Positions 2,303-12,193 of a stretch of 64,000 bases of DNA are shown here, one piece after another. The stretch comes from Vampirovibrionaceae bacterium NZW_1234 (lineage in GTDB: Bacteria; Cyanobacteriota; Vampirovibrionia; Vampirovibrionales; JAGQHJ01). Position 1 is the first letter of the stretch; each line of letters starts with the position of its first letter. The position numbers and the translations under genes were made by a program. The DNA lies in contig JBGUGD010000016.1 of assembly GCA_041697335.1 (NCBI GenBank), forward strand, positions 32,001 through 96,000. Direction: 5' to 3'. Below the pieces are notes generated by a model, which was not told the origin of the DNA, ran no database searches, and saw only the letters and a list, made by a program, of their open reading frames with translations.

Positions 2303-3169
2303 ATGCCTGCCACCTTTGCCACCAATGAAGCAAAACTGGTTGCCCTCTCCGTAACCGGGGATATTGCTTCGCCCAGCCTGAAATTGTCCTATCGCATCCA
2401 CCCGGTCAGCGGCGACCCTATTCAATTGCCCAGCGTGGGAGGCATTAGCTACAACGCCAACCTTGGGGATCCGGCCGTAGGCATTATGGCCGATCACATT
2501 GAGCCGGGTGTTTCCATCCGCCACAGCCATGATGCCAGCAATAAGGCCCTAAACACCTTTGCCTGCATCGGCAACGTCGCGAAAGTCATCACGGGCGAAG
2601 GCAAGGGCCTCACGGGGTGGGTGACAGGCAAGCATGGCGGGGTGGAGCATGTCATGATACACCTGCCAAACGTGGCCGACCTGGATCGACTGACCCTGGG
2701 GGATCGCTTTCTTATCAAGGCCCTGGGCACCGGTCTTCAGTTGCCGGATTTTCCGGAAATTACAGTACTCAATACCGATCCGGGCCTACTTGGGCGCCTG
2801 GTGACGCGGGAAGCCGACACCATCGTCTGCCCTGTGACGCATCATGTACCCGCCTATTTGCTCGGAGCCGGGCTGGGCGAAGAAACATGCCATAGCGGGG
2901 ACGTTGACATCCAGCTCTTTGATGATGAGGCCGTCTCTGAATTTCAACTGGACACGTTACGCTTTGGCGATATTGTTGCCATGCTGGACACGGATCATCG
3001 CTACGGACGCATTTATCGTCGAGGCTGGCTCAGCATTGGCGTCATCACCCACAGCTGCTGTGTCCAAGCAGGTCATGGCCCAGGGGTCACAACCATGCTG
3101 ACAGGCCCTGCACATTGCCTCAAAACCGTCCTCACCCCCCAGGCGAACCTGAAACATTATCTGGCCTAA
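2303..3169 (+). CDS. DUF4438-like protein
   Basis: Family-like motifs SVGGISYN..LGD, ADHIEPGVS, FACIGNVA, GKHGG.EHV, AGHGPGVT; recognised from memory. Confidence 0.75.
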   Translation: MPATFATNEAKLVALSVTGDIASPSLKLSYRIHPVSGDPIQLPSVGGISYNANLGDPAVGIMADHIEPGVSIRHSHDASNKALNTFACIGNVAKVITGEGKGLTGWVTGKHGGVEHVMIHLPNVADLDRLTLGDRFLIKALGTGLQLPDFPEITVLNTDPGLLGRLVTREADTIVCPVTHHVPAYLLGAGLGEETCHSGDVDIQLFDDEAVSEFQLDTLRFGDIVAMLDTDHRYGRIYRRGWLSIGVITHSCCVQAGHGPGVTTMLTGPAHCLKTVLTPQANLKHYLA

Positions 3170-3188
3170 GGCTTTCTCGGATAGGGGC

Positions 3189-3225
3189 AAAAAGAAAAAG
3201 GATCCGATGCGAACATCGTGATCCT
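3189..3225 (-). terminator. Rho-independent terminator of the LuxR-family regulator
   Basis: Stem AGGATC-CGATG / CATCG-(T)GATCCT with a TTCG loop on the minus strand, followed by TTTTTCTTTTT. Confidence 0.7.
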
Positions 3226-3273
3226 AATCACCAACCTGAGAAATAGACAAGAAAATTGTGGTGTTACATGCCC

Positions 3274-4002
3274 TTAGACCAGGCCTTCTCGGATGGCTTT
3301 CACAGCCGCCTGAACCCGATCATTGACATAGAGTTTTTGCAAAATATTGCACACGTGAGCTTTTGCCGTATGCACACTGACAATCAGTTCATTGGCAATT
3401 TCCGTATTGCTCATGCCTTCAACCAACAACCGCAACACCTCCATCTCACGCTCGGTGAGTTGGGCTTTATTGGTACTCGACGACTTGACGGCGCTGGCAC
3501 CCGGGGTAGCTTTGCCTTCATTCGGCTTGGGGCAGAGTTTTAAGGCGACCGAGGCAATGGCCGGGTCCAACCAGGCCCCGCCTTCTGCAACAGTTTGAAT
3601 CGCTTCAGCCAGGCGAACCGAATCAATATCTTTTAAGCAATAAGCGTTAGCGCCCGAACCCAAAGCGGAAATCACTTCCTCTTCACGTTCATGGGAGGTT
3701 AAGACAATAACCTTGATATTGGGGTCAAAGGTTTTAATTTGCTGGGTTGCTTCAATCCCATTCATACCCGGCAGACCTAAGTCCATCAGGACTACATCGG
3801 GGCGCAGGCGGCGAATCAGACTCAAACCTTTTTCAGCGTTTTCGGCTTCGCCAATGACTTTGATATTTTCATATTTGCTTAAAAAGGAACGGATCCCGAC
3901 TCGGGTGAGGTTGTAATCTTCAACGATGACCACATTAATTAACCGGTTGGTCATTACAGGAGTGGACGTGGATGTCGGTTGTGTTGCCAAGTTCATATTC
4001 AT
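3274..4002 (-). CDS. NarL/FixJ (LuxR-HTH) family response regulator
   Basis: REC domain (IVED, VLMDLGLP, AYCLK) plus LuxR HTH (LTEREMEVL, SNTEIA, TAKAHVCNILQKL). Confidence 0.95.
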   Translation of the reverse strand: MNMNLATQPTSTSTPVMTNRLINVVIVEDYNLTRVGIRSFLSKYENIKVIGEAENAEKGLSLIRRLRPDVVLMDLGLPGMNGIEATQQIKTFDPNIKVIVLTSHEREEEVISALGSGANAYCLKDIDSVRLAEAIQTVAEGGAWLDPAIASVALKLCPKPNEGKATPGASAVKSSSTNKAQLTEREMEVLRLLVEGMSNTEIANELIVSVHTAKAHVCNILQKLYVNDRVQAAVKAIREGLV

Positions 4003-4907
4003 CGAAATACCCTCTTAATTATGACTCTCTATCAATAGCTAAGGATTATCAAAAAACCGCAGGTGGTTTACATTGGTCTCTTCTTTTATCGTTATTGCCC
4101 ATATTTGGGTCAATAAATTGCGTCAACATTTCACCAAATGGCAGTCATTTGGGCCTAGACCAACCTGGTTGTTCTTATAGGTAGCGGCAGAGCCGTTATA
4201 CCCAACCTCGATTGGTTTTTAGGTCGCCTCTAACGCTTTTGACTAACGCTATTTGGCTATTAGCTTTATACACATTCCATACCTAAGATTCACTAACCCG
4301 ATTGGGCAGTCTTCAAGGATTCCTTTAAAAAACCCTTTTTCAGAGCAAGGTTTCGCCTTGGCAGGCGATTATTTTAGGCACACCTTGCTTAGCATTCCAT
4401 TTTTAAAATTCCCTTATTTTCACAACAAAGGCGCCAAAAGCCTGACTTTTATTAGTATTTTACAAAATACCCAGGCAATTATACGTCTATAATCGTCAAT
4501 CATCGACAATGAATTTCATGAGTATTTGCTAAAAATACGGTTCACAAGGCTTTTCATGATCCACAAAACAATCTTATTCACTGAAGTCCAGGCCATTTCT
4601 AATTCGCTATTGCTCTGATCGGCAATGCTGTAATTGTCGAACCGGCTAAATGACGTCCTCTTAACTTCTTGTTTAAATCCTTCAACGAAACATCTTGGAA
4701 AATAAAATACCCACAGAAACTGGATTAGGGGAAACTTTGATCTGCGCAACAAAGGAGGTGTGATGTTGATTTTGCCATAACCAACACCCTTGGATAGTGG
4801 CAATACCATTTCCGGATAAAACAGTTTTTTTGGTATTTAGCAGTGTTCCTGTCTGGTTTATCAAAGCCTGTTACTCTCAATAATAATTTTAAGAAAGGAT
4901 ACATACT
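4003..4907. promoter_or_regulatory. Long AT-rich divergent regulatory region
   Basis: About 900 bp with no credible CDS between divergent genes; many A/T tracts; AAAGGA RBS before 4908. Confidence 0.6.
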
Positions 4908-6710
4908 ATGGTAAATAAACGCAGTTTATTAGCACTCGCAGTTACTGTTTCATTGGCTGGTGCTTCTGCCGCCGCTTGGGCCGATGTTGAAGACTCCTAT
5001 ATTGATAATTCCCAAGGGCAAAACAACGGCCAAGTGGATTCCTTCAATGACAATTCCAAAGGCCAAAACAACGGCGTTGTCGACAGCAGCGACAACAGCA
5101 TCAGCGACTCCGCCAATGGCAACACCATCGGTAACACCAAAACCGATTCTAGCGCCAACGATTCCTTCAACGACAATTCCGAAGGACAAAACAATGGCCA
5201 AGTCGATTCTTTCAACTCTTACTCCGATGCCAGCGTGAATGACAGCGGCAATACCGATGCCAGTATCAATGACAGCGGCAATGGCAATACCATTGGCAAT
5301 ACCAAAACCGATGCCAGCATCAACGATTCCTTCAACGACAATTCCCACGGCCAGAACAACGGCGTTGTCGACAGCAGCGATAACAGCGTGAATGACAGTG
5401 GAAACACCGATGCCAGCGCCAACGATTCGTTCAATGACAACTCTCAAGGGCAAAACAATGGCCAGGTAGATTCCTTCAACACCGATGCCAGTGTTAACGA
5501 TTCTGGTAATACCTATGCCAGCGTCAGCGATTCCGGCAACACCGACAATAGCGTGAATGACAGTGGCAACGGCAACAGCATCGGCAACACCAAAACCGAT
5601 GCCAGCGTCAACGATTCCTTCAACGACAATTCCCACGGCCAAAACAACGGTGTTGTGGACAATAGCGACAACAGCGTGAATGACAGCGGCAACACCGATG
5701 CCAGCATCAACGATTCGGGCAACGGCAACGTGATCGGCAACACCGATGCCAGCGTCAATGACAGCGGTAATGGCAACAGCATCGGCAACACCAAAACCGA
5801 TACCAACGCCAGTATCAACGATTCGTTCAACGACAACTCCCAAGGCCAGAACAACGGCTTGGTGGATTCCGCGAACACCTACACCGAAACCAAAACCAAC
5901 ACCGACGCCAGCATCAACGATTCCGGTAACACCGATGCCAGCGTAAACCACTCCTTCAATGACAACTCCCAAGGCCAGAACAACGGCTTAGTGGATTCCG
6001 CAAACACCGACAACAGCGTCAACGATTCCGGCAACGGTAACGTGATTGGCAACACGGACGCCAGTGTGACCGACTCCGGTAACACCGACGCCAGCGTGAA
6101 CCACTCCTTCAACGACAACTCCCAAGGCCAGAACAACGGCTTAGTGGATTCCGCGAACACCTACACCGAAACCAAAACCGACAACAGCATCAACGATTCT
6201 TTCAACACCGATGCTAGCGTCAACGACTCCGGCAATGGCAACGTCATTGGCAACACGGACAACAGCATCAACGATTCCTTCAATGACAACTCCCATGGCC
6301 AAAACAACGGCACCATCACCCACGATTCCTTCAAAAACTACGACACGAACAACCAGACCGGGATGTTCAACATGGATGACGGCGCTGCTGCCGCTGTGGG
6401 CAACGCAGCTGATCGTGACGCCACTATCAACGATGGTGATGTCCTGGGTGCTTTAGGTTCTACCGTAGTGACCGGCCAAGCTTATGACTCCGTCATTGGC
6501 ACCGGCAACATCCTGTCGAGCGGCGGTTCCGTGTTAAACGGCGACGGCATCATGGGCAACATCGACACCGCAATCATCGGCGGCTCTGGCGATGTGTTCA
6601 AGCAAGTCGGCGTGGGTATCGGTGGCGATGTGAGCGACAGCAACGTCAACAACTCGCAAACCACCGTGGTCACCGGCAACAACCAAAACGTGACCCAAAT
6701 CGGTCAATAA
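4908..6710 (+). CDS. Secreted Asn/Asp/Ser-rich modular repeat protein (putative beta-solenoid or amyloid-like fibre subunit)
   Basis: Sec signal MVNKRSLLALAVTVSLAGASAAAWA; 10 copies of DNSxGQNNG and many D(A/N)S(V/I)NDS(G/F)N units; no Pro or Cys. Confidence 0.85.
   Translation: MVNKRSLLALAVTVSLAGASAAAWADVEDSYIDNSQGQNNGQVDSFNDNSKGQNNGVVDSSDNSISDSANGNTIGNTKTDSSANDSFNDNSEGQNNGQVDSFNSYSDASVNDSGNTDASINDSGNGNTIGNTKTDASINDSFNDNSHGQNNGVVDSSDNSVNDSGNTDASANDSFNDNSQGQNNGQVDSFNTDASVNDSGNTYASVSDSGNTDNSVNDSGNGNSIGNTKTDASVNDSFNDNSHGQNNGVVDNSDNSVNDSGNTDASINDSGNGNVIGNTDASVNDSGNGNSIGNTKTDTNASINDSFNDNSQGQNNGLVDSANTYTETKTNTDASINDSGNTDASVNHSFNDNSQGQNNGLVDSANTDNSVNDSGNGNVIGNTDASVTDSGNTDASVNHSFNDNSQGQNNGLVDSANTYTETKTDNSINDSFNTDASVNDSGNGNVIGNTDNSINDSFNDNSHGQNNGTITHDSFKNYDTNNQTGMFNMDDGAAAAVGNAADRDATINDGDVLGALGSTVVTGQAYDSVIGTGNILSSGGSVLNGDGIMGNIDTAIIGGSGDVFKQVGVGIGGDVSDSNVNNSQTTVVTGNNQNVTQIGQ
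4995..6310 (+). repeat. Coding tandem/modular repeats inside the secreted protein
   Basis: Recurring DNA units such as AACGATTCCTTCAACGACAATTCC, GGCCAGAACAACGGC and ACCGATGCCAGC. Confidence 0.9.
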
Positions 6711-6722
6711 TCCTTGTTTCAC

Positions 6723-6754
6723 AGGTCCGGATCTCATGGATGGGATCCGGACCT
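6723..6754 (+). terminator. Strong intergenic hairpin (terminator or mRNA-stabilising stem-loop)
   Basis: AGGTCCGGATCTCA-TGGA-TGGGATCCGGACCT followed by only a short TT tract. Confidence 0.65.
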
Positions 6755-6852
6755 TTCCCCCTCCCTGAGAACATTCGCAACAAAGGAACATCCATCAAGC
6801 GTTCGATAAGCCAACCAATCATCAGCGCATCAGCCAGCAAAAGGAGCGGCGT

Positions 6853-8151
6853 ATGACACAGCAGCAAACGTATTTTAAGGGACCGTTTCGAACCGTAAAT
6901 CGTTTTTTGACCTTTGGATTTCTGGTAGGAACCGTGTGGATGAGCGGGAACCAAGCCGGTTATGCCTTTGAACTCGACAATGTCAATTCCATGGGCGGTC
7001 ACATGTCTCAAACCTTCACCGACAGTTTCGGCCTTACATCCGTGATGGGTACCACCGGCGCTAATTTCGGCTCAGGCAGCTCTTTGGGCACAGGTATCAA
7101 TATGGGATCGGGGCTCAATACCGGCAGCGGCACCAATATGGGCTCCGGCATCAACACCAATTCGGGCGTCAATGCCGGTAGCGGCACAAATAATGGTACT
7201 GGTGTCAATCTGGGGGGCGGTATTTTAGGCGATGTCAACAATGCCATTGTCAACCCTTCGCCTAATGGCAACAGCCAGGTTTCTAACGGAGTCGGCGTGG
7301 CCATTAACGGCAACACCGACGGCTCTTTAGTCAACAACACACAAAACAATCTGTCCACGGGGAGCAACACCAACTACAACCAAATCGTCAATCCAAATAC
7401 GTCCAATTCCAACGGGGGAAATGCGGTGCTGATGTTGCCTCGAAACCCGTTGCCTTTGGGGAATGCCGGGTTGGGCCGCTCGAATTTCGGACTTCAGTTT
7501 GGGCTTCAAAACAACCCCATTTTAAGCGGTCTGGGTCGGGGCGGCGGCAATGCGCTGGGCTGGTTTATGCAAGCCGGTTTAACGATTCCCTTCGGAAAGA
7601 TCCCCGATATTTATCGCAACCAGGCCTCTCAGCCCTCTCTGGATACGGATGTGCGCCAAGCCCGTCAAGAGCAGCAGCGTAACCTTTTTAATCCCGGGGG
7701 CCCCAATAATTCCATGCAACCGGGAAGCATCAAAACCAACGTCAACGGTCGCATCATGAGTATGGGGGCGTATAATTATGCCACCATTCCCAACACGAAA
7801 ATTCCATTGCCCGACAACTTAAGCGGGGCTGTCAGCGATCTTAAACTCCAGTCACCTAAAATCGTGGCGCTCACCAGTGCCGAAGTTTACAGCAAGCCGC
7901 TCAACGTCGGGGAAAAAATTGGGACCGTCGAAGTGGGTAACGAATACGCCTATCTGGGACATACCAAATCGGGCTGGGTTAAGCTCCTGATGCCCAACGG
8001 CAAGGAAGGCTGGACCAGTACCACATTTGAATACCTGAAGAACGATTACACCGAGATTGATGATCTGGCACTCTCGGTCCCCAGCGTCAAACGGGAAAAA
8101 ACAGCGTTTAAACCGGAACAAAAACACCCGGCTCAAAAACGGGCCCAATAA
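6853..8151 (+). CDS. Exported protein with Gly/Asn hexapeptide repeats, a module shared with the upstream repeat protein, a beta-hairpin and a C-terminal SH3-like domain
   Basis: AAGGAG RBS; hydrophobic segment ending in AGYA; G(S/T)GxNx repeats; SH3b-like VYSKP...KIGTV..G...GWVKL.MPNGKEGW. Confidence 0.75.
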   Translation: MTQQQTYFKGPFRTVNRFLTFGFLVGTVWMSGNQAGYAFELDNVNSMGGHMSQTFTDSFGLTSVMGTTGANFGSGSSLGTGINMGSGLNTGSGTNMGSGINTNSGVNAGSGTNNGTGVNLGGGILGDVNNAIVNPSPNGNSQVSNGVGVAINGNTDGSLVNNTQNNLSTGSNTNYNQIVNPNTSNSNGGNAVLMLPRNPLPLGNAGLGRSNFGLQFGLQNNPILSGLGRGGGNALGWFMQAGLTIPFGKIPDIYRNQASQPSLDTDVRQARQEQQRNLFNPGGPNNSMQPGSIKTNVNGRIMSMGAYNYATIPNTKIPLPDNLSGAVSDLKLQSPKIVALTSAEVYSKPLNVGEKIGTVEVGNEYAYLGHTKSGWVKLLMPNGKEGWTSTTFEYLKNDYTEIDDLALSVPSVKREKTAFKPEQKHPAQKRAQ

Positions 8152-8175
8152 CATACAACCTGATGAGATGCCGCT

Positions 8176-8661
8176 ATGGATCACCCGAAATCTGTCACCA
8201 TCACCATTCATCCCTGGAAAAAAGCCGTCACCTGGATTTTATCGTCATGGGTGATCCTGGCGGCCTGTTTGATCCTACTCTGTCCCGTGGCGCATGCCCG
8301 ATCAGCGGCGACACCCTGGACCATGGATCAGACCTTTCAGAATCTCGTCTACGGGGCCTCCACACCTCCGGAGGTGGTTCGCATTGTCGGCCGCTATCCC
8401 GATGAAATTGTCAAAGCCGATCAGATGGCCCCGGCGATTTTAAATTATTATTATTTCGATGAACAGAACCGGGCCACGGTGTTTGTCTTTGAAAATAATT
8501 TCCTGGTGGCCCTGTTGTACCGTTCCGCATCGGATCAATACGTGGATTTGACGTCGTTTTTACCCAATGTTGGCGATCGCATGATCAATTCTCAGATATT
8601 GGGTAACACCATGGGCTATTTCCCCAACCTGCCCATGTTCAATCCATTCATGATGCCCTAA
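8176..8661 (+). CDS. Small exported protein, possibly BamE/SmpA-like fold
   Basis: Signal peptide ending in AHA; pattern GASTPPEVVRIVG.P...YYY...VFVFENN.LV. Confidence 0.6.
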   Translation: MDHPKSVTITIHPWKKAVTWILSSWVILAACLILLCPVAHARSAATPWTMDQTFQNLVYGASTPPEVVRIVGRYPDEIVKADQMAPAILNYYYFDEQNRATVFVFENNFLVALLYRSASDQYVDLTSFLPNVGDRMINSQILGNTMGYFPNLPMFNPFMMP

Positions 8662-8842
8662 GTCAGCCCTTGCACGTGTATCCGACATCAAGGCAATAAC
8701 CGTAACCGGCAGGACTTTTTATAATAAATAACATACCCAAACGAGTGCGGGGTCAGACAAACACCGCCCAAAAGGAGGGCCTGCTCCACCCTGAGAAAAA
8801 GGCTCTTTGGGGGTACATGTTGTTTTAGGGGCATAATCAGAC

Positions 8843-10018
8843 ATGCGCATTGCACAAATTGCACCACTCTGGGAGACCGTCCCACCCCGATCCTATGGCG
8901 GAACGGAACTGGTCATTCACCTGTTGACCGAGCACCTGCATCAGCTGGGCCACGAGGTCACCTTATTCGCCGCGCACGCGTCAAAGACCCAGGCACACCT
9001 TCAGGTCTGCTCGGATTTTCCGCTTCGGGAACTGCCCGCGCACTACTCCCACTGCAACGATGCCAAAGCCCTTTCCGTCTACCCCGGTTCGCAGGCCTCG
9101 GCTTATTTTGAACTTCGCATGCTGGAGCATGTCTATGCCCAGGCCGAGCGGTTCGATGTCATTCACAATCACCTGGGCCCGATGGCGCTACCCTTTGCCC
9201 ATCAATCCGGCACGCCCACCCTCACCACCCTGCATGGACCGTTTCTGGAAACCACGTTGATCCAATGTCTGGAAAAACAACAGTACCAGACCTATGCGCA
9301 CCTGCCCTATGTGTCCATCAGCGATAACCAGCGCCAGGGCTGCCCGCAGCTCAATTATGTCCAAACCATTCACCATGGGCTTGATCTGAGCCAATACCCC
9401 TATCAACCCAACCTGCCTGACGAACCTTATTTAGCATTCCTGGGGCGATTCTGCGAGGACAAAGGGCCACACCATGCCATTGCCGTTGCCAAAGCCACGG
9501 GCCTTAAGCTGATTATGGCAGGGAAAGTGGATAATCCTGAGGAAAAAGCCTTTTTTAAACGCGCCGTTGAGCCTCATCTGGACAATCGGCAGATCCGCTA
9601 TATCGGCGAACTCAATCATCCGCAAAAAACAGCGCTTCTGTCCAATGCCGTGGCGACCCTGTGCCCCATTTCATGGCCAGAGCCCTTTGGCCTGGTGGTC
9701 ATTGAATCTATGGCCTGTGGCACACCGGTTCTGGCCTTTGGCCATGGAGCCATTCCGGAACTCATCCGGCACGGCGAAACCGGATTTGTCCTCGATTCCC
9801 CGGAGGCCATGATAGCCGCTCTGGAAAACATCCACACGGTGTCTCGCAAAGCCGTGCGCCACCATGCTGAGAGATCCTTTTCTGCCCAGGCCATGACCCG
9901 GCAGTATGTGGAGGCGTATCAGCGCGTGCGGCTTGAATCGTTGTCATTGCACCCACCGAAAAAAATCACGCGCCTGTCTCACCCCTGGGAATCGGGCAAG
10001 GCCCCGATCGTTGTATAA
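8843..10018 (+). CDS. Glycosyltransferase family 4
   Basis: MRIAQIAPLWETVPP..YGGTE; FLGR...KG; EPFGLVVIESMACGTPV. Confidence 0.93.
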   Translation: MRIAQIAPLWETVPPRSYGGTELVIHLLTEHLHQLGHEVTLFAAHASKTQAHLQVCSDFPLRELPAHYSHCNDAKALSVYPGSQASAYFELRMLEHVYAQAERFDVIHNHLGPMALPFAHQSGTPTLTTLHGPFLETTLIQCLEKQQYQTYAHLPYVSISDNQRQGCPQLNYVQTIHHGLDLSQYPYQPNLPDEPYLAFLGRFCEDKGPHHAIAVAKATGLKLIMAGKVDNPEEKAFFKRAVEPHLDNRQIRYIGELNHPQKTALLSNAVATLCPISWPEPFGLVVIESMACGTPVLAFGHGAIPELIRHGETGFVLDSPEAMIAALENIHTVSRKAVRHHAERSFSAQAMTRQYVEAYQRVRLESLSLHPPKKITRLSHPWESGKAPIVV

Positions 10019-10027
10019 GAGCCTGGA

Positions 10028-12193
10028 TTGATGCTGTTAACCGAGCCCAATACGTTTTCCGTCTCAAACCGCACCATTAAAAACAACCACCTGTTTCTGG
10101 TGGATACCATGGTGGGCGAAATTCCACAGAACAACAGCTCCGGCATGGGACTTTACAGTTTGGACACCCGATTTTTAAGCACCTACGAGATCCGCCTTAA
10201 CGCCACAGAACCCGTGTGCCTGCTCTCTTCCACCGAATCAGGCTATTTGTCCACCCTGGTCTATACCAACGGGCGAATGCCCAGCGTCGACCATCAAGAG
10301 CGTCCTTGCCTCATTCAGGAAGAATGCCTGCAACTGAAGCGCGAATCGATCCTCGATCATGCCCTGTTTGAAAAGTACACCCTGATCAGTTATAACGACC
10401 AACCGGCACATTTGAAGATCCGCATGCGCTTTGATGCCGACTTTCGGGACATGTTTGAAATCCGCCATCTGGTGCCCTGTAAAGATCGGGCCTTACCTCC
10501 AACCATTGTTGAAGACAACACCCTGATCTTTCGCTACCCCAACCCTGATAAACTGATGGAGACCCGCATTCGTTTTGTAGACGTCTCTCCCATCCACGTG
10601 GATGATCACACGGTGGAGTTGACCTTTTTATTGTACCCTCTCGAGCGTCATGAATTTTTTCTGGAAATTACGCCGTGCAACGACATCACCTTCAATTCGC
10701 CTCTCATCCCCACCAACTTTGAAGATGCCCGAAGCCGGGTGCACACCACCAACATGGTGTGGAAACAGGAGGTCACGGAATTTTTATCGGACAACGATGA
10801 CTTTAACGAAATGCTGTCTCGAAGCCACAAGGACCTTCGCATGTTGATTACCCAGGCCGAAGATGGCCAGCAATTTATTGCCGCAGGCATTCCCTGGTAT
10901 GTCTGCCTCTTTGGCCGAGACAGCATTATTACGGCACGGGAAACCTTGATACTCAACCCGGCCATTGCCAAGTGGACTCTGGAGATCCTGGCCGCCCACC
11001 AAGGGCAAGCGCATCGCCCCTGGCAGGATGAAGAGGCGGGAAAAATCCTGCATGAACTTCGAACCGGTGAGCTGGCCCGGCTCAAGGAGATCCCCCACAC
11101 CCCCTATTATGGCAGTGTGGATGCCACCCCATTGTGGCTGATTTTGCTGTACGACTATTACCTTTGGACCAAGGATCTGGAGACCCTGGAGCGGCTCTGG
11201 CCCCATGCCTTGGCCGCGTTATCCTGGATTGACCGCAACCTGGCCAAAAGCCCCCTGGGTTACGCCACCTACGAGACCGAGAATCACAGCGGCGTCGGCA
11301 TTGTCCACCAGGGCTGGAAAGACTCGAACAACAGCGCCATGTATGAAAACGGCCTTCAGGCCGAACCCCCCATTGCCCTGTCCGAAGTGCAAGGGTATGT
11401 CTATCTGGCCAAACGCCGCATGGCGACACTCGCTGATCTGATGAACGACAAGGCTTTAAAAGCCCGGTTGCGCGAGGAAAACCAAGCCTTTAAAAAGAAA
11501 TTCAACCGGGATTTCTGGATGGACGATCTGCGCTTTTGTGCCATGGGCCTGGACAGTCAGGGTAAACCCCTTCGCGTCATCGCCTCTAACCCCGGTCATT
11601 GTCTGGAAACCGGGATTTTCACGTCGCGCCATGCCTACCAGGTCGTCTCCCGTCTGATGGCCCCCGATATGTTTAGCGGCTGGGGCATTCGCACGCTCAG
11701 TTCCACCATGGCGGCCTACAACCCCATGAGCTACCACAACGGCTCCATCTGGCCTCACGACAATGCCATGATTGCCGCCGGAATGGCGAGCATGCATCGC
11801 ACGGACTTGAGCGAGAAGATCTTTTCCGGCCTGTTTGACGCGGCACGATTGATGGCCTATAAACGCCTGCCGGAACTGTTTTGTGGTTTCTCTCGGGACC
11901 GGGGCAAAATGGATCCCCCCGTCCGCTATCCGGTGGCCTGCTCACCGCAGGCCTGGGCCGCGGCCTCCATCTACAGTCTCATTCAGGCCATGCTCCACAT
12001 CGTACCGGATGTTCCGAACAACACCCTGACCATTACCCAACCCCAGCTACCCCACTTTATGAATCGCCTTCGCATCAGCAACCTGCATGTAGGCAAGGCC
12101 ACGGTGGATCTGGAATTTCGCCGGACCGACAAAACCGTGGTCGTCGATGTCCTCAACCGTTCCGGAAAAGTGGACATTATCGTCAAGATCTGA
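10028..12193 (+). CDS. Amylo-alpha-1,6-glucosidase / glycogen debranching enzyme family
   Basis: AAGIPWYVCLFGRDS, EAGKILHELR, YYGSVDATPLW, QGWKDS, YHNGSIWPHDN, ACSPQAWAA. Confidence 0.9.
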   Translation: MMLLTEPNTFSVSNRTIKNNHLFLVDTMVGEIPQNNSSGMGLYSLDTRFLSTYEIRLNATEPVCLLSSTESGYLSTLVYTNGRMPSVDHQERPCLIQEECLQLKRESILDHALFEKYTLISYNDQPAHLKIRMRFDADFRDMFEIRHLVPCKDRALPPTIVEDNTLIFRYPNPDKLMETRIRFVDVSPIHVDDHTVELTFLLYPLERHEFFLEITPCNDITFNSPLIPTNFEDARSRVHTTNMVWKQEVTEFLSDNDDFNEMLSRSHKDLRMLITQAEDGQQFIAAGIPWYVCLFGRDSIITARETLILNPAIAKWTLEILAAHQGQAHRPWQDEEAGKILHELRTGELARLKEIPHTPYYGSVDATPLWLILLYDYYLWTKDLETLERLWPHALAALSWIDRNLAKSPLGYATYETENHSGVGIVHQGWKDSNNSAMYENGLQAEPPIALSEVQGYVYLAKRRMATLADLMNDKALKARLREENQAFKKKFNRDFWMDDLRFCAMGLDSQGKPLRVIASNPGHCLETGIFTSRHAYQVVSRLMAPDMFSGWGIRTLSSTMAAYNPMSYHNGSIWPHDNAMIAAGMASMHRTDLSEKIFSGLFDAARLMAYKRLPELFCGFSRDRGKMDPPVRYPVACSPQAWAAASIYSLIQAMLHIVPDVPNNTLTITQPQLPHFMNRLRISNLHVGKATVDLEFRRTDKTVVVDVLNRSGKVDIIVKI

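Follow-up and report, generated by a model that had tools for sequence, protein, structure and literature searches.

Three co-oriented genes in the genome of Vampirovibrionaceae bacterium NZW_1234, all with putative export signals, raise the question of what structure their products form. They lie in a window of 64,000 nt, the whole stretch of DNA analysed here, and had been proposed in a first-pass annotation to encode an extracellular fibre or functional-amyloid system of three components: a major subunit, a nucleator-anchor and an accessory protein. Both observations agree with the sequence. The three genes are located on the forward strand (Table 1), and each protein starts with an N-terminal hydrophobic stretch and a small-residue cleavage motif, the features from which export was judged. 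The genes are a real, conserved operon in Vampirovibrionales and belong to a conserved six-gene set seen only in this order, which includes an alga-eating bacterium. As read from sequence, the set probably forms a fibre or coat of protein at the cell surface.

Table 1 Features of the locus (positions in the window)
Feature	Position	Strand	Remarks
NarL/LuxR-type response regulator, divergent	3274..4002	-	Pfam
Shine-Dalgarno-like site, gene 1	4894..4899	+	read from sequence
Gene 1 ORF	4908-6710	+	600 aa
Shared module (~45 residues), gene 1 C-terminus	6555..6698	+	residues 550-597; module profile E 5.4e-13
14-bp stem-loop past the gene 1 stop	6723-6754	+	followed by a C/T-rich tail without U-tract
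Gene 2 ORF	6853-8151	+	432 aa
Shared module copy, gene 2	7249..7383	+	~residues 133-177; E 5.1e-11
Highly conserved core, gene 2	7414..7680	+	Pro-containing linker 188-210, amphipathic beta-hairpin 211-219 + 238-246, helix 255-276
Bacterial SH3-type domain, gene 2	7858..8055	+	~residues 336-401; pLDDT >=90
Gene 3 ORF	8176-8661	+	161 aa

Genomic context and distribution of the gene set

The trio co-occurs and is syntenic across the order. Gene 3 comes after gene 2 in all 21 copies (20 loci), and 17 of them also have a gene-1-like ORF ahead of gene 2. The remaining four copies are truncated at a contig end or broken by a gap in the assembly, with a partial gene 1 in two. The system is larger than the three genes originally proposed. 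Three further genes, located on another contig of this 94.75% complete genome, share the presence/absence pattern of genes 1-3 (19-20 of 49 order genomes) and encode putatively exported proteins, namely a TPR protein, a TPR-matrixin protease and a beta-helix-like protein. Gene 3 occurs in 20 of the 49 genomes, and these 20 are also the ones with the TPR gene and the shared module; the protease gene is found in 19 of them, and the beta-helix gene in 18 of these and in one other genome. TPR and Peptidase_M10 (matrixin) domains are combined in all three protease homologues that were scanned. The set went undetected in 29 of the 49 genomes, and gene 3 had no match in 400 other genomes of the phylum. 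The records of Vampirovibrio chlorellavorus contain the system.

Of 20 related loci, 4 have a regulator of the NarL/LuxR type ahead of gene 1, and only one of these is a close relative (83% identical); the divergent gene here is a possible regulator and no constant part of the system. A downstream glycosyltransferase gene was not counted as a member because it adjoins the operon in just 2 of 20 related loci. Rfam gave no match across window positions 3000-10000.

Gene 1 encodes a putative major subunit

Gene 1 is, as first described, an N/D/S/G/T-rich repeat protein (N 19.8%, S 14.7%, D 13.0%, G 11.8%, T 8.0%) in which Pro and Cys are absent. A putative signal peptide (~residues 1-25) is followed by an acidic Asn/Asp/Ser repeat body of irregular short units centred on D-S-[FG]-N, with periods of 30, 48, 153 and 207 nt at the DNA level (TRF), and by a conserved C-terminal region of ~110 residues. 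The bodies are hypervariable: motif, period and charge of the repeats change between genomes, and lengths range from 272 to 900 aa across the homologues. They are strongly acidic, with net charges down to -120 and some near-perfect Ser-Asp-Asn triplet runs, and they retain regularly spaced Val/Ile/Phe. Pro is absent from the bodies of 14 of 18 proteins and occurs at most five times in the others. The gene 1 proteins carry no excess of extended N-glycosylation sequons (37 observed, 49.4 expected).

No family in Pfam or NCBIfam matched gene 1, only unnamed clusters were returned by the ESM Atlas (0.85-0.88), and a word-index search with the C-terminal alignment gave no match among 8000 candidates, which is weak evidence. 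Sequence searches of solved structures with gene 2, gene 3, the hairpin core, the gene 1 C-terminus and the module yielded nothing significant (best E 0.16-1.1), LpxA beta-helices being among the best matches of the gene 1 C-terminus. The beta-solenoid or amyloid fold suggested earlier has so far not been borne out: AlphaFold2 predicted no strands for residues 250-600 (pLDDT 41.9) from an alignment of 19 poorly alignable rows.

Gene 1 ranks 14th of 3016 ORFs in codon adaptation (reference set of 11 genes); genes 2, 3 and the other three set genes rank between 835 and 2736. In the 14 homologous loci inspected, the start likewise has a purine-rich site ahead of it. The strong hairpin noticed behind gene 1 is the stem-loop given in Table 1, and a stem of at least 11 bp (11-17 bp) is located within 80 nt of the gene 1 stop in all 18 operons, compared to 8% of 2576 genes of this genome. 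RNAalifold found no consensus pairs in 16 of these stem-loops because their sequences do not align, and every hairpin was therefore tested singly. The element is likely an mRNA 3'-stabiliser or a leaky terminator. Taken with the codon usage, it agrees with the role of major subunit assigned in the first-pass annotation; the sequence features of gene 1 suggest a structural protein made in abundance.

A single module is shared by genes 1 and 2

Gene 2 had been said to share the C-terminal module of gene 1. This relationship is confirmed by profile comparison (hhalign probability 96.4, E 1.2e-9), but it covers just ~45 residues, with one copy per protein, C-terminal in gene 1 and towards the N-terminus in gene 2. 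The claim rests on the profile test since composition-corrected tblastn misses the pair. A profile of the gene 2 module matches the C-terminal end of all 18 gene 1 proteins with 8.7-32.2 bits, while reversed controls reach at most 7.9. The module is found in genes 1 and 2 and in no other protein of the 20 genomes, and gene 1 has no other positive-scoring domain.

Module identity between genes 1 and 2 is 41.5% within an operon and 31.3% across operons. None of 20000 permutations was as high, and the signal holds after thinning to 15 and 11 operons. The matching is modest for the individual operon: the cognate pair ranks first in 5 of 18 operons and falls below average in 2. It was seen in one of the two genomes with two operons. 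Codons agree at 149 of 275 matched module residues, barely above the background of 1705 of 3540, which favours matching at the protein level over recent gene conversion. The cognate matching could equally come from a common binding partner.

Gene 2 is a putative template and anchor

At least 100 homologues of gene 2 are among the matches listed, every one with E <1e-91, and the core contains invariant alignment columns. The beta-hairpin and the SH3-like domain described before both appear in the AlphaFold2 model. Hairpin positions alternate between hydrophobic residues and Gly/Gln, with aromatic residues at the ends; overall, the model has a pTM of 0.33, with a pLDDT of only about 55-70 in the hairpin region. 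The module is extended in this monomer model (pLDDT 70-81), without intrachain strands. No distant relatives of the core were found among 1.84 billion representatives. A lone outlying match to the hairpin profile, the carboxypeptidase-regulatory-like repeat protein P0207 (E 1.2e-4), was discarded as chance. Homology to TolC, suspected by eye, was not seen on comparison of the hairpin with 11 OEP repeats of this genome (hhalign probability 0.3); Pfam OEP does not match gene 2 either.

The SH3 domain is matched by Pfam SH3_3 with E 1.3e-5 and 25.7 bits, slightly below the 27-bit cut-off. Its top structural matches are SH3 domains of bacterial cell-wall enzymes (Z 8.0-8.4; best match Z 8.4, rmsd 2.5, 68 aligned residues), and it probably binds peptidoglycan. 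SH3 domains were all that fold searches with the gene 2 model recovered, so the hairpin and the module were barely probed. Covariation across 100 sequences (top z 7.2) did not exceed that in eight column-shuffled runs (5.3-7.3) and is therefore not used as support; a clean pattern is seen for the pair 144/150 only, which occurs as Ala/Ala (33), Phe or Tyr/Gly (24) and Cys/Cys (9). A cognate-matched module, a membrane-type hairpin and a cell-wall-type SH3 domain fit the earlier view of gene 2 as a minor subunit and anchor.

Gene 3 belongs to a closed family

Gene 3 encodes a small exported protein with 103 homologues that form a closed family; no family in Pfam or NCBIfam matched it. A likeness to BamE is an unconfirmed lead. 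By eye, the protein shows a helix-turn-sheet pattern like that of BamE/SmpA-OmlA, small proteins of outer-membrane assembly, and two of its three nearest Atlas clusters are annotated as BamE, at scores (0.80-0.81) of a size that one in three shuffled proteins also attains. Pfam BamE (PF04355) matched 0 of 102 family members, and the gene 3 profile did not match the single E. coli BamE sequence used (hhalign probability 0.1). A conserved lipoprotein cysteine is absent from the gene 3 alignments.

Proposed mechanism and alternatives

The reading that we somewhat favour is that gene 1 polymerises on a template of membrane-anchored gene 2 and that a dedicated machine of six proteins thereby builds a cell-anchored extracellular polymer, either a fibre or a pad. 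All six proteins would cross the inner membrane via their putative signal peptides. Gene 1 would be made in large excess over gene 2, as suggested by the strong ribosome site, the codons resembling those of ribosomal proteins, and the stem-loop, which may protect or end the gene 1 message. Gene 2 may oligomerise in the outer membrane by its amphipathic hairpin, with the SH3 domain on peptidoglycan and the N-terminal module outside. The C-terminal module of gene 1 would then stack on the matching gene 2 module, and further copies of gene 1 would follow as cross-beta layers, with the hypervariable acidic body as the exposed surface. By analogy, gene 3 and the TPR protein may help with assembly or maintain gene 1 in a soluble state, while the TPR-matrixin zinc protease may process or clear subunits and the beta-helix-like protein may act as a cap, minor subunit or chaperone. 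With net charges of down to -120, the gene 1 body itself is not expected to stack closely, and the missing predicted fold, the single-copy module and the non-conserved body repeats speak against the polymer model. The low model confidence for the gene 2 hairpin, the modest cognate matching per operon and the covariation at the level of shuffled controls weigh against it as well.

An alternative is a tethered coat, in which gene 1 is a brush, mostly disordered, strongly acidic and probably Ca2+-binding, whose module docks in a finite complex with gene 2, giving a coat or adhesive pad and no indefinite polymer. Lack of a predicted fold, strong acidity with Ser-Asp-Asn runs and one module per chain are all expected of such a brush. 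On the other side, the gene 1 excess suggested by codon adaptation and stem-loop would be needless for a 1:1 tether, the rarity or absence of Pro in most bodies together with regular Val/Ile/Phe fits beta-rich proteins better than disordered ones, and the RTX calcium motif was not found in the 18 proteins. We regard this coat as unlikely. Alternatively, the set may be a small dedicated secretion system in which gene 3 or the TPR protein recognises the module as a targeting signal, gene 2 forms the pore and bears its own module as a plug or decoy, and gene 1 leaves the cell in soluble form, as an adhesin or matrix protein. Such a signal-and-processing scheme agrees with the lone terminal module, the TPR partner and the protease, and a common receptor would explain the cognate matching too. 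Yet the module is on no other substrate in the 20 genomes, and a two-strand subunit must form a large oligomer to pass a chain of 270-900 residues; we consider this route improbable.

A structure within the periplasm or cell wall has still less to recommend it and is judged very unlikely. A plain two-strand hairpin puts both ends of gene 2 on one side of the membrane, which would place module and SH3 domain in the periplasm and make gene 1 a scaffold or plug between the membranes. The simple hairpin topology, the cell-wall type of the SH3 domain and the failure to find CsgG in this genome are in line with this arrangement, whereas divergence as extreme as that of the gene 1 body, in both length (272-900 aa) and sequence, is commoner among exposed proteins, and the conserved linker 188-210 might provide a third membrane crossing.

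A more far-reaching form of the polymer model, possible but doubtful, is an independently evolved pathway that secretes and assembles a functional amyloid and in which gene 2 fuses nucleator, hairpin-subunit outer-membrane pore and cell-wall anchor. To the fibre core each subunit would contribute one terminal module, which co-evolves with its nucleator and displays the hypervariable body, and the product may be the attachment pad of V. chlorellavorus or its fibrils of unknown composition. The link of the set to predation is circumstantial because a type IV secretion system has been proposed in the literature for the V. chlorellavorus pad and 29 of the 49 order genomes lack a detectable set.

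Comparison with known systems

Outer-membrane beta-barrels that are oligomers of subunits with few strands each include the TolC family, trimeric autotransporters and CsgG. The short amphipathic strands of gene 2, with Gly/Gln on one face, aromatic ends and a helix behind them, resemble these, but gene 2 has no match to TolC-type repeats, CsgG or a solved structure. RTX and other type I secreted Ca2+-binding proteins have no Sec signal, in contrast to the gene 1 proteins with their N-terminal signal-like peptides, and the RTX nonapeptide GGxGxDxL is found in 0 of 18.

Curli and Fap are model bacterial amyloid pathways that converged on similar machinery and have the division of labour proposed here, with a protease in Fap (PMC12822426). 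The resemblance to curli lies in an exported Asn-rich major subunit beside a homologous minor protein and dedicated accessory proteins (PMC12822426). A minor subunit that is homologous to the major one and adjoins it is present here by way of the one-copy module. Curli, assembled by type VIII secretion, comprise the major subunit CsgA and the nucleator CsgB, with CsgG, CsgF and CsgE for secretion and CsgC as chaperone. At the level of homology, the distinction from curli and Fap made earlier is upheld. Curlin repeats (PF07012) are absent from this genome at E 0.1 (positive control in E. coli) and from gene 1 and 14 homologues, curlin consensus patterns fit 0 of 18 gene 1 proteins, and no profile matched E. 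coli CsgA, CsgG or CsgE. CsgG was found in 4 of 14 control genomes and not in this one, which is 94.75% complete. Solved chains of FapC or CsgA gave no match at E 10, no C39 match was obtained among the cluster genes scanned, and PF13557, a family used as proxy for FapF, is absent here but also from all 14 controls. By inspection, no gene of the set has the length or pattern of a FapF-type 12-strand barrel.

Fap, with FapC, FapB, FapE, the pore FapF, the peptidase FapD and the chaperone FapA, likewise comprises six genes including a protease, and variable sequence lies around a conserved unit; the protease here is a matrixin (M10) in place of the C39 peptidase FapD. The frame of the module, hydrophobic-Gly-hydrophobic-Asn ... 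Asn-x-Gln-Asn, recalls the FapC motif at a length of ~45 against 38-39 residues (PMC12392863). The published motif or its 6-residue spacing (PMC12392863) occurs in 0 of 33 modules; a relaxed pattern with a spacing of 7-12 residues, mostly 9, fits 16 of them. Each protein carries one module, compared to three motif copies in 94% of FapC proteins. The subunit pairing assumed by analogy with curli and Fap stands as far as the shared unit is concerned; unlike in both systems, what is common is one terminal module and not the repeats, and the gene 1 body repeats are not conserved between genomes as those of CsgA and FapC are. In further contrast to curli, the minor gene is located downstream of the major one and is fused to hairpin and SH3 domain, and metalloprotease and TPR proteins belong to the set.

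By sequence comparison, the core proteins are without detectable relatives among known fibre systems. A working mode like that of curli and Fap, with no detectable homology to either, is by analogy a little better than an even prospect. If true, the set would be a further independent solution besides these two, in non-photosynthetic relatives of cyanobacteria, with a different architecture: one terminal module matched per operon, and a minor subunit that brings its own membrane and cell-wall anchor.

Genomic context and co-occurrence

Three co-oriented ORFs, proposed by the first-pass annotation as a candidate extracellular fibre or functional-amyloid system, are present on the forward strand of the window (G000:C10:32001-96000; see table). 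The trio is conserved: among 21 gene 2 copies, gene 3 lies 3' of gene 2 in 21/21 and a gene-1-like ORF upstream in 17/21, the remaining four being truncated by contig ends or a gap. The set is larger than proposed, comprising six genes. Downstream are genes for a TPR protein (about 435 aa; 18/21) and a TPR-matrixin (M10) protease (16/21); upstream of gene 1, 7/21 have one for a protein of 300-390 aa whose repeats are beta-helix-like. In the source genome these accessory genes lie on another contig, C28. Their proteins all have signal-like N-termini, and the protease retains the zincin-type motif HExxHxxGxxH.

Features of the gene set in the window and of the accessory locus of the source genome (G000)
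Feature	Coordinates	Strand	Remark
gene 1	4908-6710	+	600 aa ORF
stem-loop, 3' of gene 1 stop	6723-6754		14 bp
gene 2	6853-8151	+	432 aa ORF
gene 3	8176-8661	+	161 aa ORF
TPR, TPR-matrixin and beta-helix-like genes	G000:C28:16096-19710 (= L074:4097-7711)		last gene convergent

At thresholds set to exclude paralogues (1e-40, 1e-50 and 1e-15), the TPR gene and gene 3 occur in the same 20/49 Vampirovibrionales genomes. Of these 20, 19 have the protease; the beta-helix gene is in 18 of them plus one other genome. The genomes missing the protease or beta-helix gene are 56% and 78% complete. Presence is patchy within families (3/4, 1/19 and 15/25, related genomes not being independent), so the co-occurrence exceeds shared ancestry of one clade.

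A separate accessory locus likewise occurs in two genomes of the same family (L068, L069), one of which also carries a TPR-protease pair beside its gene 3. The C28 locus is flanked by an ORF of 440 aa that carries short T-x-[AK]-Y-P-S-D repeats close to the start (G000:C28:12049-13368) and by one of 404 aa that combines a low-complexity, Gly-rich segment with an Asp tail (G000:C28:19821-21032). At one locus, a 549-aa Thr/Gly/Asn-rich ORF lies directly 3' of the protease gene on the opposite strand (L071:10834-12480). A third gene 3-TPR-protease run at a contig end of genome G028 (L070:6367-9411) suggests a third operon there. In the window, gene 3 is followed by a GT4 glycosyltransferase gene, adjoining gene 3 in only 2/20 related loci, and a 721-aa ORF that by eye looks like a glycogen-debranching type (8843-12193).

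Distribution

Genes 2 and 3 are present in an identical 15/41 related genomes. Scanning species genomes gave 20 loci, mostly titled Vampirovibrionales or Melainabacteria and including Vampirovibrio chlorellavorus; the system was therefore assigned to the order Vampirovibrionales. Gene 3 was absent from all 400 genomes sampled elsewhere in the phylum. In the best-sampled genus 7/8 genomes are positive, and one that is 97% complete gave no match to gene 3. Records titled Firmicutes or Coleofasciculaceae also carry the system (the whole of locus L036, as well as L040 and L042). In the tree, gene 2 of L036 is placed with that of the window (support 100/99), and these titles are probably depositor labels, not transfer.

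The conserved core of gene 2 returned 16 proteins from 1.84 billion cluster representatives. Fifteen belong to the gene 2 family, including three new ones that on inspection show the full layout; the sixteenth is a chance repeat protein. The family is thus closed at this sensitivity. Genes 1 and 3 have no family match in Pfam or NCBIfam, and gene 2 matches only bacterial SH3 (E 1.3e-5). The envelope system is real and conserved, its core proteins are orphans, and it is apparently undescribed: full-text searches of open-access literature brought up no publication on the six-gene cluster.

Gene 1 as a putative major subunit

Gene 1 consists of 67% N/S/D/G/T without any Pro or Cys, in agreement with its earlier description. 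A signal-like N-terminus is followed by short units of irregular make-up, centred on D-S-[FG]-N. For the trio, hydropathy and small-residue cleavage motifs, the criteria applied, fit the export signals previously read. Homologues of gene 1 are 272-900 aa long and keep the signal peptide and C-terminal region; their bodies vary in motif and period, carry net charges of -7 to -120, and seldom contain Pro. The suggested beta-solenoid fold did not appear: AlphaFold2 gave residues 250-600 a pLDDT of 41.9 and no strands, a result that is not decisive because the alignment held 19 rows at 26% column identity.

In codon adaptation, with 11 highly expressed genes as reference, gene 1 takes rank 14 among 3016 ORFs, in the company of held-out ribosomal-cluster genes (seven best: ranks 20-139). 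It scores 0.098 versus -0.080 (sd 0.016) when the same protein is encoded by average codons; the other five set genes rank 835-2736. The hairpin noted after gene 1 is general: a stem of 11-17 bp lies at most 80 nt past the stop in 18/18 operons versus 8% of 2576 genes in this genome (z -3 to -13 against shuffled sequences). At least five T in the eight bases after the stem occur in only 2/18. The stem-loop is read here as a probable 3' stabiliser or leaky terminator, which would yield gene 1 in large excess over gene 2, and gene 1 looks like a major structural protein.

Two genomes have a second operon (L046:15991-18690, L042:2185-3837), directly preceded by genes for a sensor kinase and a response regulator. 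The gene 1 repeat in these operons is of another kind and more regular, with lags of 15-16 or of 20 and 16. On contig C8 of the source genome, two Asn-rich, Pro- and Cys-poor ORFs of 346 and 586 aa (C8:7633-8670, C8:12239-13996) flank a response regulator, lack the shared module and rank high in codon adaptation (9 and 12, against a different reference set).

A module shared by genes 1 and 2

The module reported as common to both genes is confirmed: hhalign (probability 96.4, E 1.2e-9) pairs the N-terminal module of gene 2 with the final 45 residues of gene 1. The profile of the gene 2 module matches the C-terminal end of 18/18 gene 1 proteins, each above reversed controls, and a joint profile finds only genes 1 and 2, in the same 20/49 genomes. 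In the source genome each chain has one copy.

Over 40 core columns, module identity between genes 1 and 2 is 41.5% within versus 31.3% across operons. None of 20000 permutations was as high, and the result holds when 15 or 11 operons are used. Paralogues older than the lineages would not be expected to favour their own genome; the match therefore points to concerted evolution. Codon agreement at matched residues (54% vs 48% background) speaks for protein-level selection rather than recent gene conversion. Per operon the effect is modest: the own partner ranks first in 5/18 (40-column alignment) or 9/18 (pairwise score), and the preference is upheld in one of the two genomes with two operons. 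Within the module, gene 2 alignment positions 144/150 are Ala/Ala in 33, Phe or Tyr/Gly in 24 and Cys/Cys in 9 of the 100 sequences; these compensatory pairs suggest that the two residues touch across a tight turn.

Anatomy of gene 2 and gene 3

The AlphaFold2 model of gene 2 (100 sequences; mean pLDDT 65, pTM 0.33) contains the expected beta-hairpin (211-219 and 238-246) and a confident C-terminal SH3 domain, with a helix at 255-276. The module is extended (pLDDT 70-81) without intrachain strands, which would be compatible with, though no proof of, pairing from chain to chain. Family-wide, the hairpin strands alternate hydrophobic residues with Gly/Gln and carry aromatics at their ends, a pattern shared with outer-membrane strands. 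No relation of the hairpin to TolC repeats or CsgG was found. The nearest structural matches of the SH3 are bacterial cell-wall enzyme domains (Z 8.0-8.4).

A plain hairpin would put module and SH3 on the same side. Opposite sides would hypothetically need the invariant Pro-rich linker 188-210 to cross too, for example via an oligomeric barrel lumen. Membrane topology is hypothetical, since covariation was not above shuffled controls and the model is a monomer only. Gene 3 resembles BamE only at the level of a lead (0.81) and matched it neither in Pfam nor in a profile comparison.

Proposed mechanism and relation to known systems

We lean towards polymerisation of gene 1 on the module of gene 2 that matches it. 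Synteny, co-occurrence, homology and matching of the modules, conservation of the stem-loop, codon bias and the SH3 domain are established, whereas the route of export, the oligomer, the stacking and the roles of the accessory proteins are inferred. Gene 1 would be exported in excess and its C-terminal region would stack on the module of gene 2, a putative outer-membrane, wall-anchored oligomer, with gene 3, the TPR protein, the protease and the beta-helix protein as presumed helpers. The strongly acidic gene 1 bodies are equally compatible with a fibre and with a brush or coat that binds Ca2+, and a tethered acidic coat is an unlikely alternative. A small secretion system with the module as its signal is less probable again, and a periplasmic scaffold comes last. 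That the system is a separate pathway for amyloid secretion and assembly, with nucleator, pore and anchor fused, is conceivable but improbable.

A link to predation is circumstantial. In passages of PMC4451040 a pad is described, its composition given as unknown and its origin ascribed to a type IV secretion system, with curli going unmentioned; a passage of PMC4913114 mentions fibril appendages.

Curli and Fap were compared by their components as listed in passages of PMC12822426. As first noted for the locus, neither is matched: no curlin repeat and no CsgG were found in the source genome, and the FapC motif, as given in section 2.1 of PMC12392863, is matched by 0/33 modules. The protease of Fap is C39, whereas that of the six-gene set is M10. 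A looser FapC-like frame with longer spacing fits 16/33 modules, so very remote kinship or convergence with Fap is conceivable. The system may work like curli or Fap, yet it belongs to neither.
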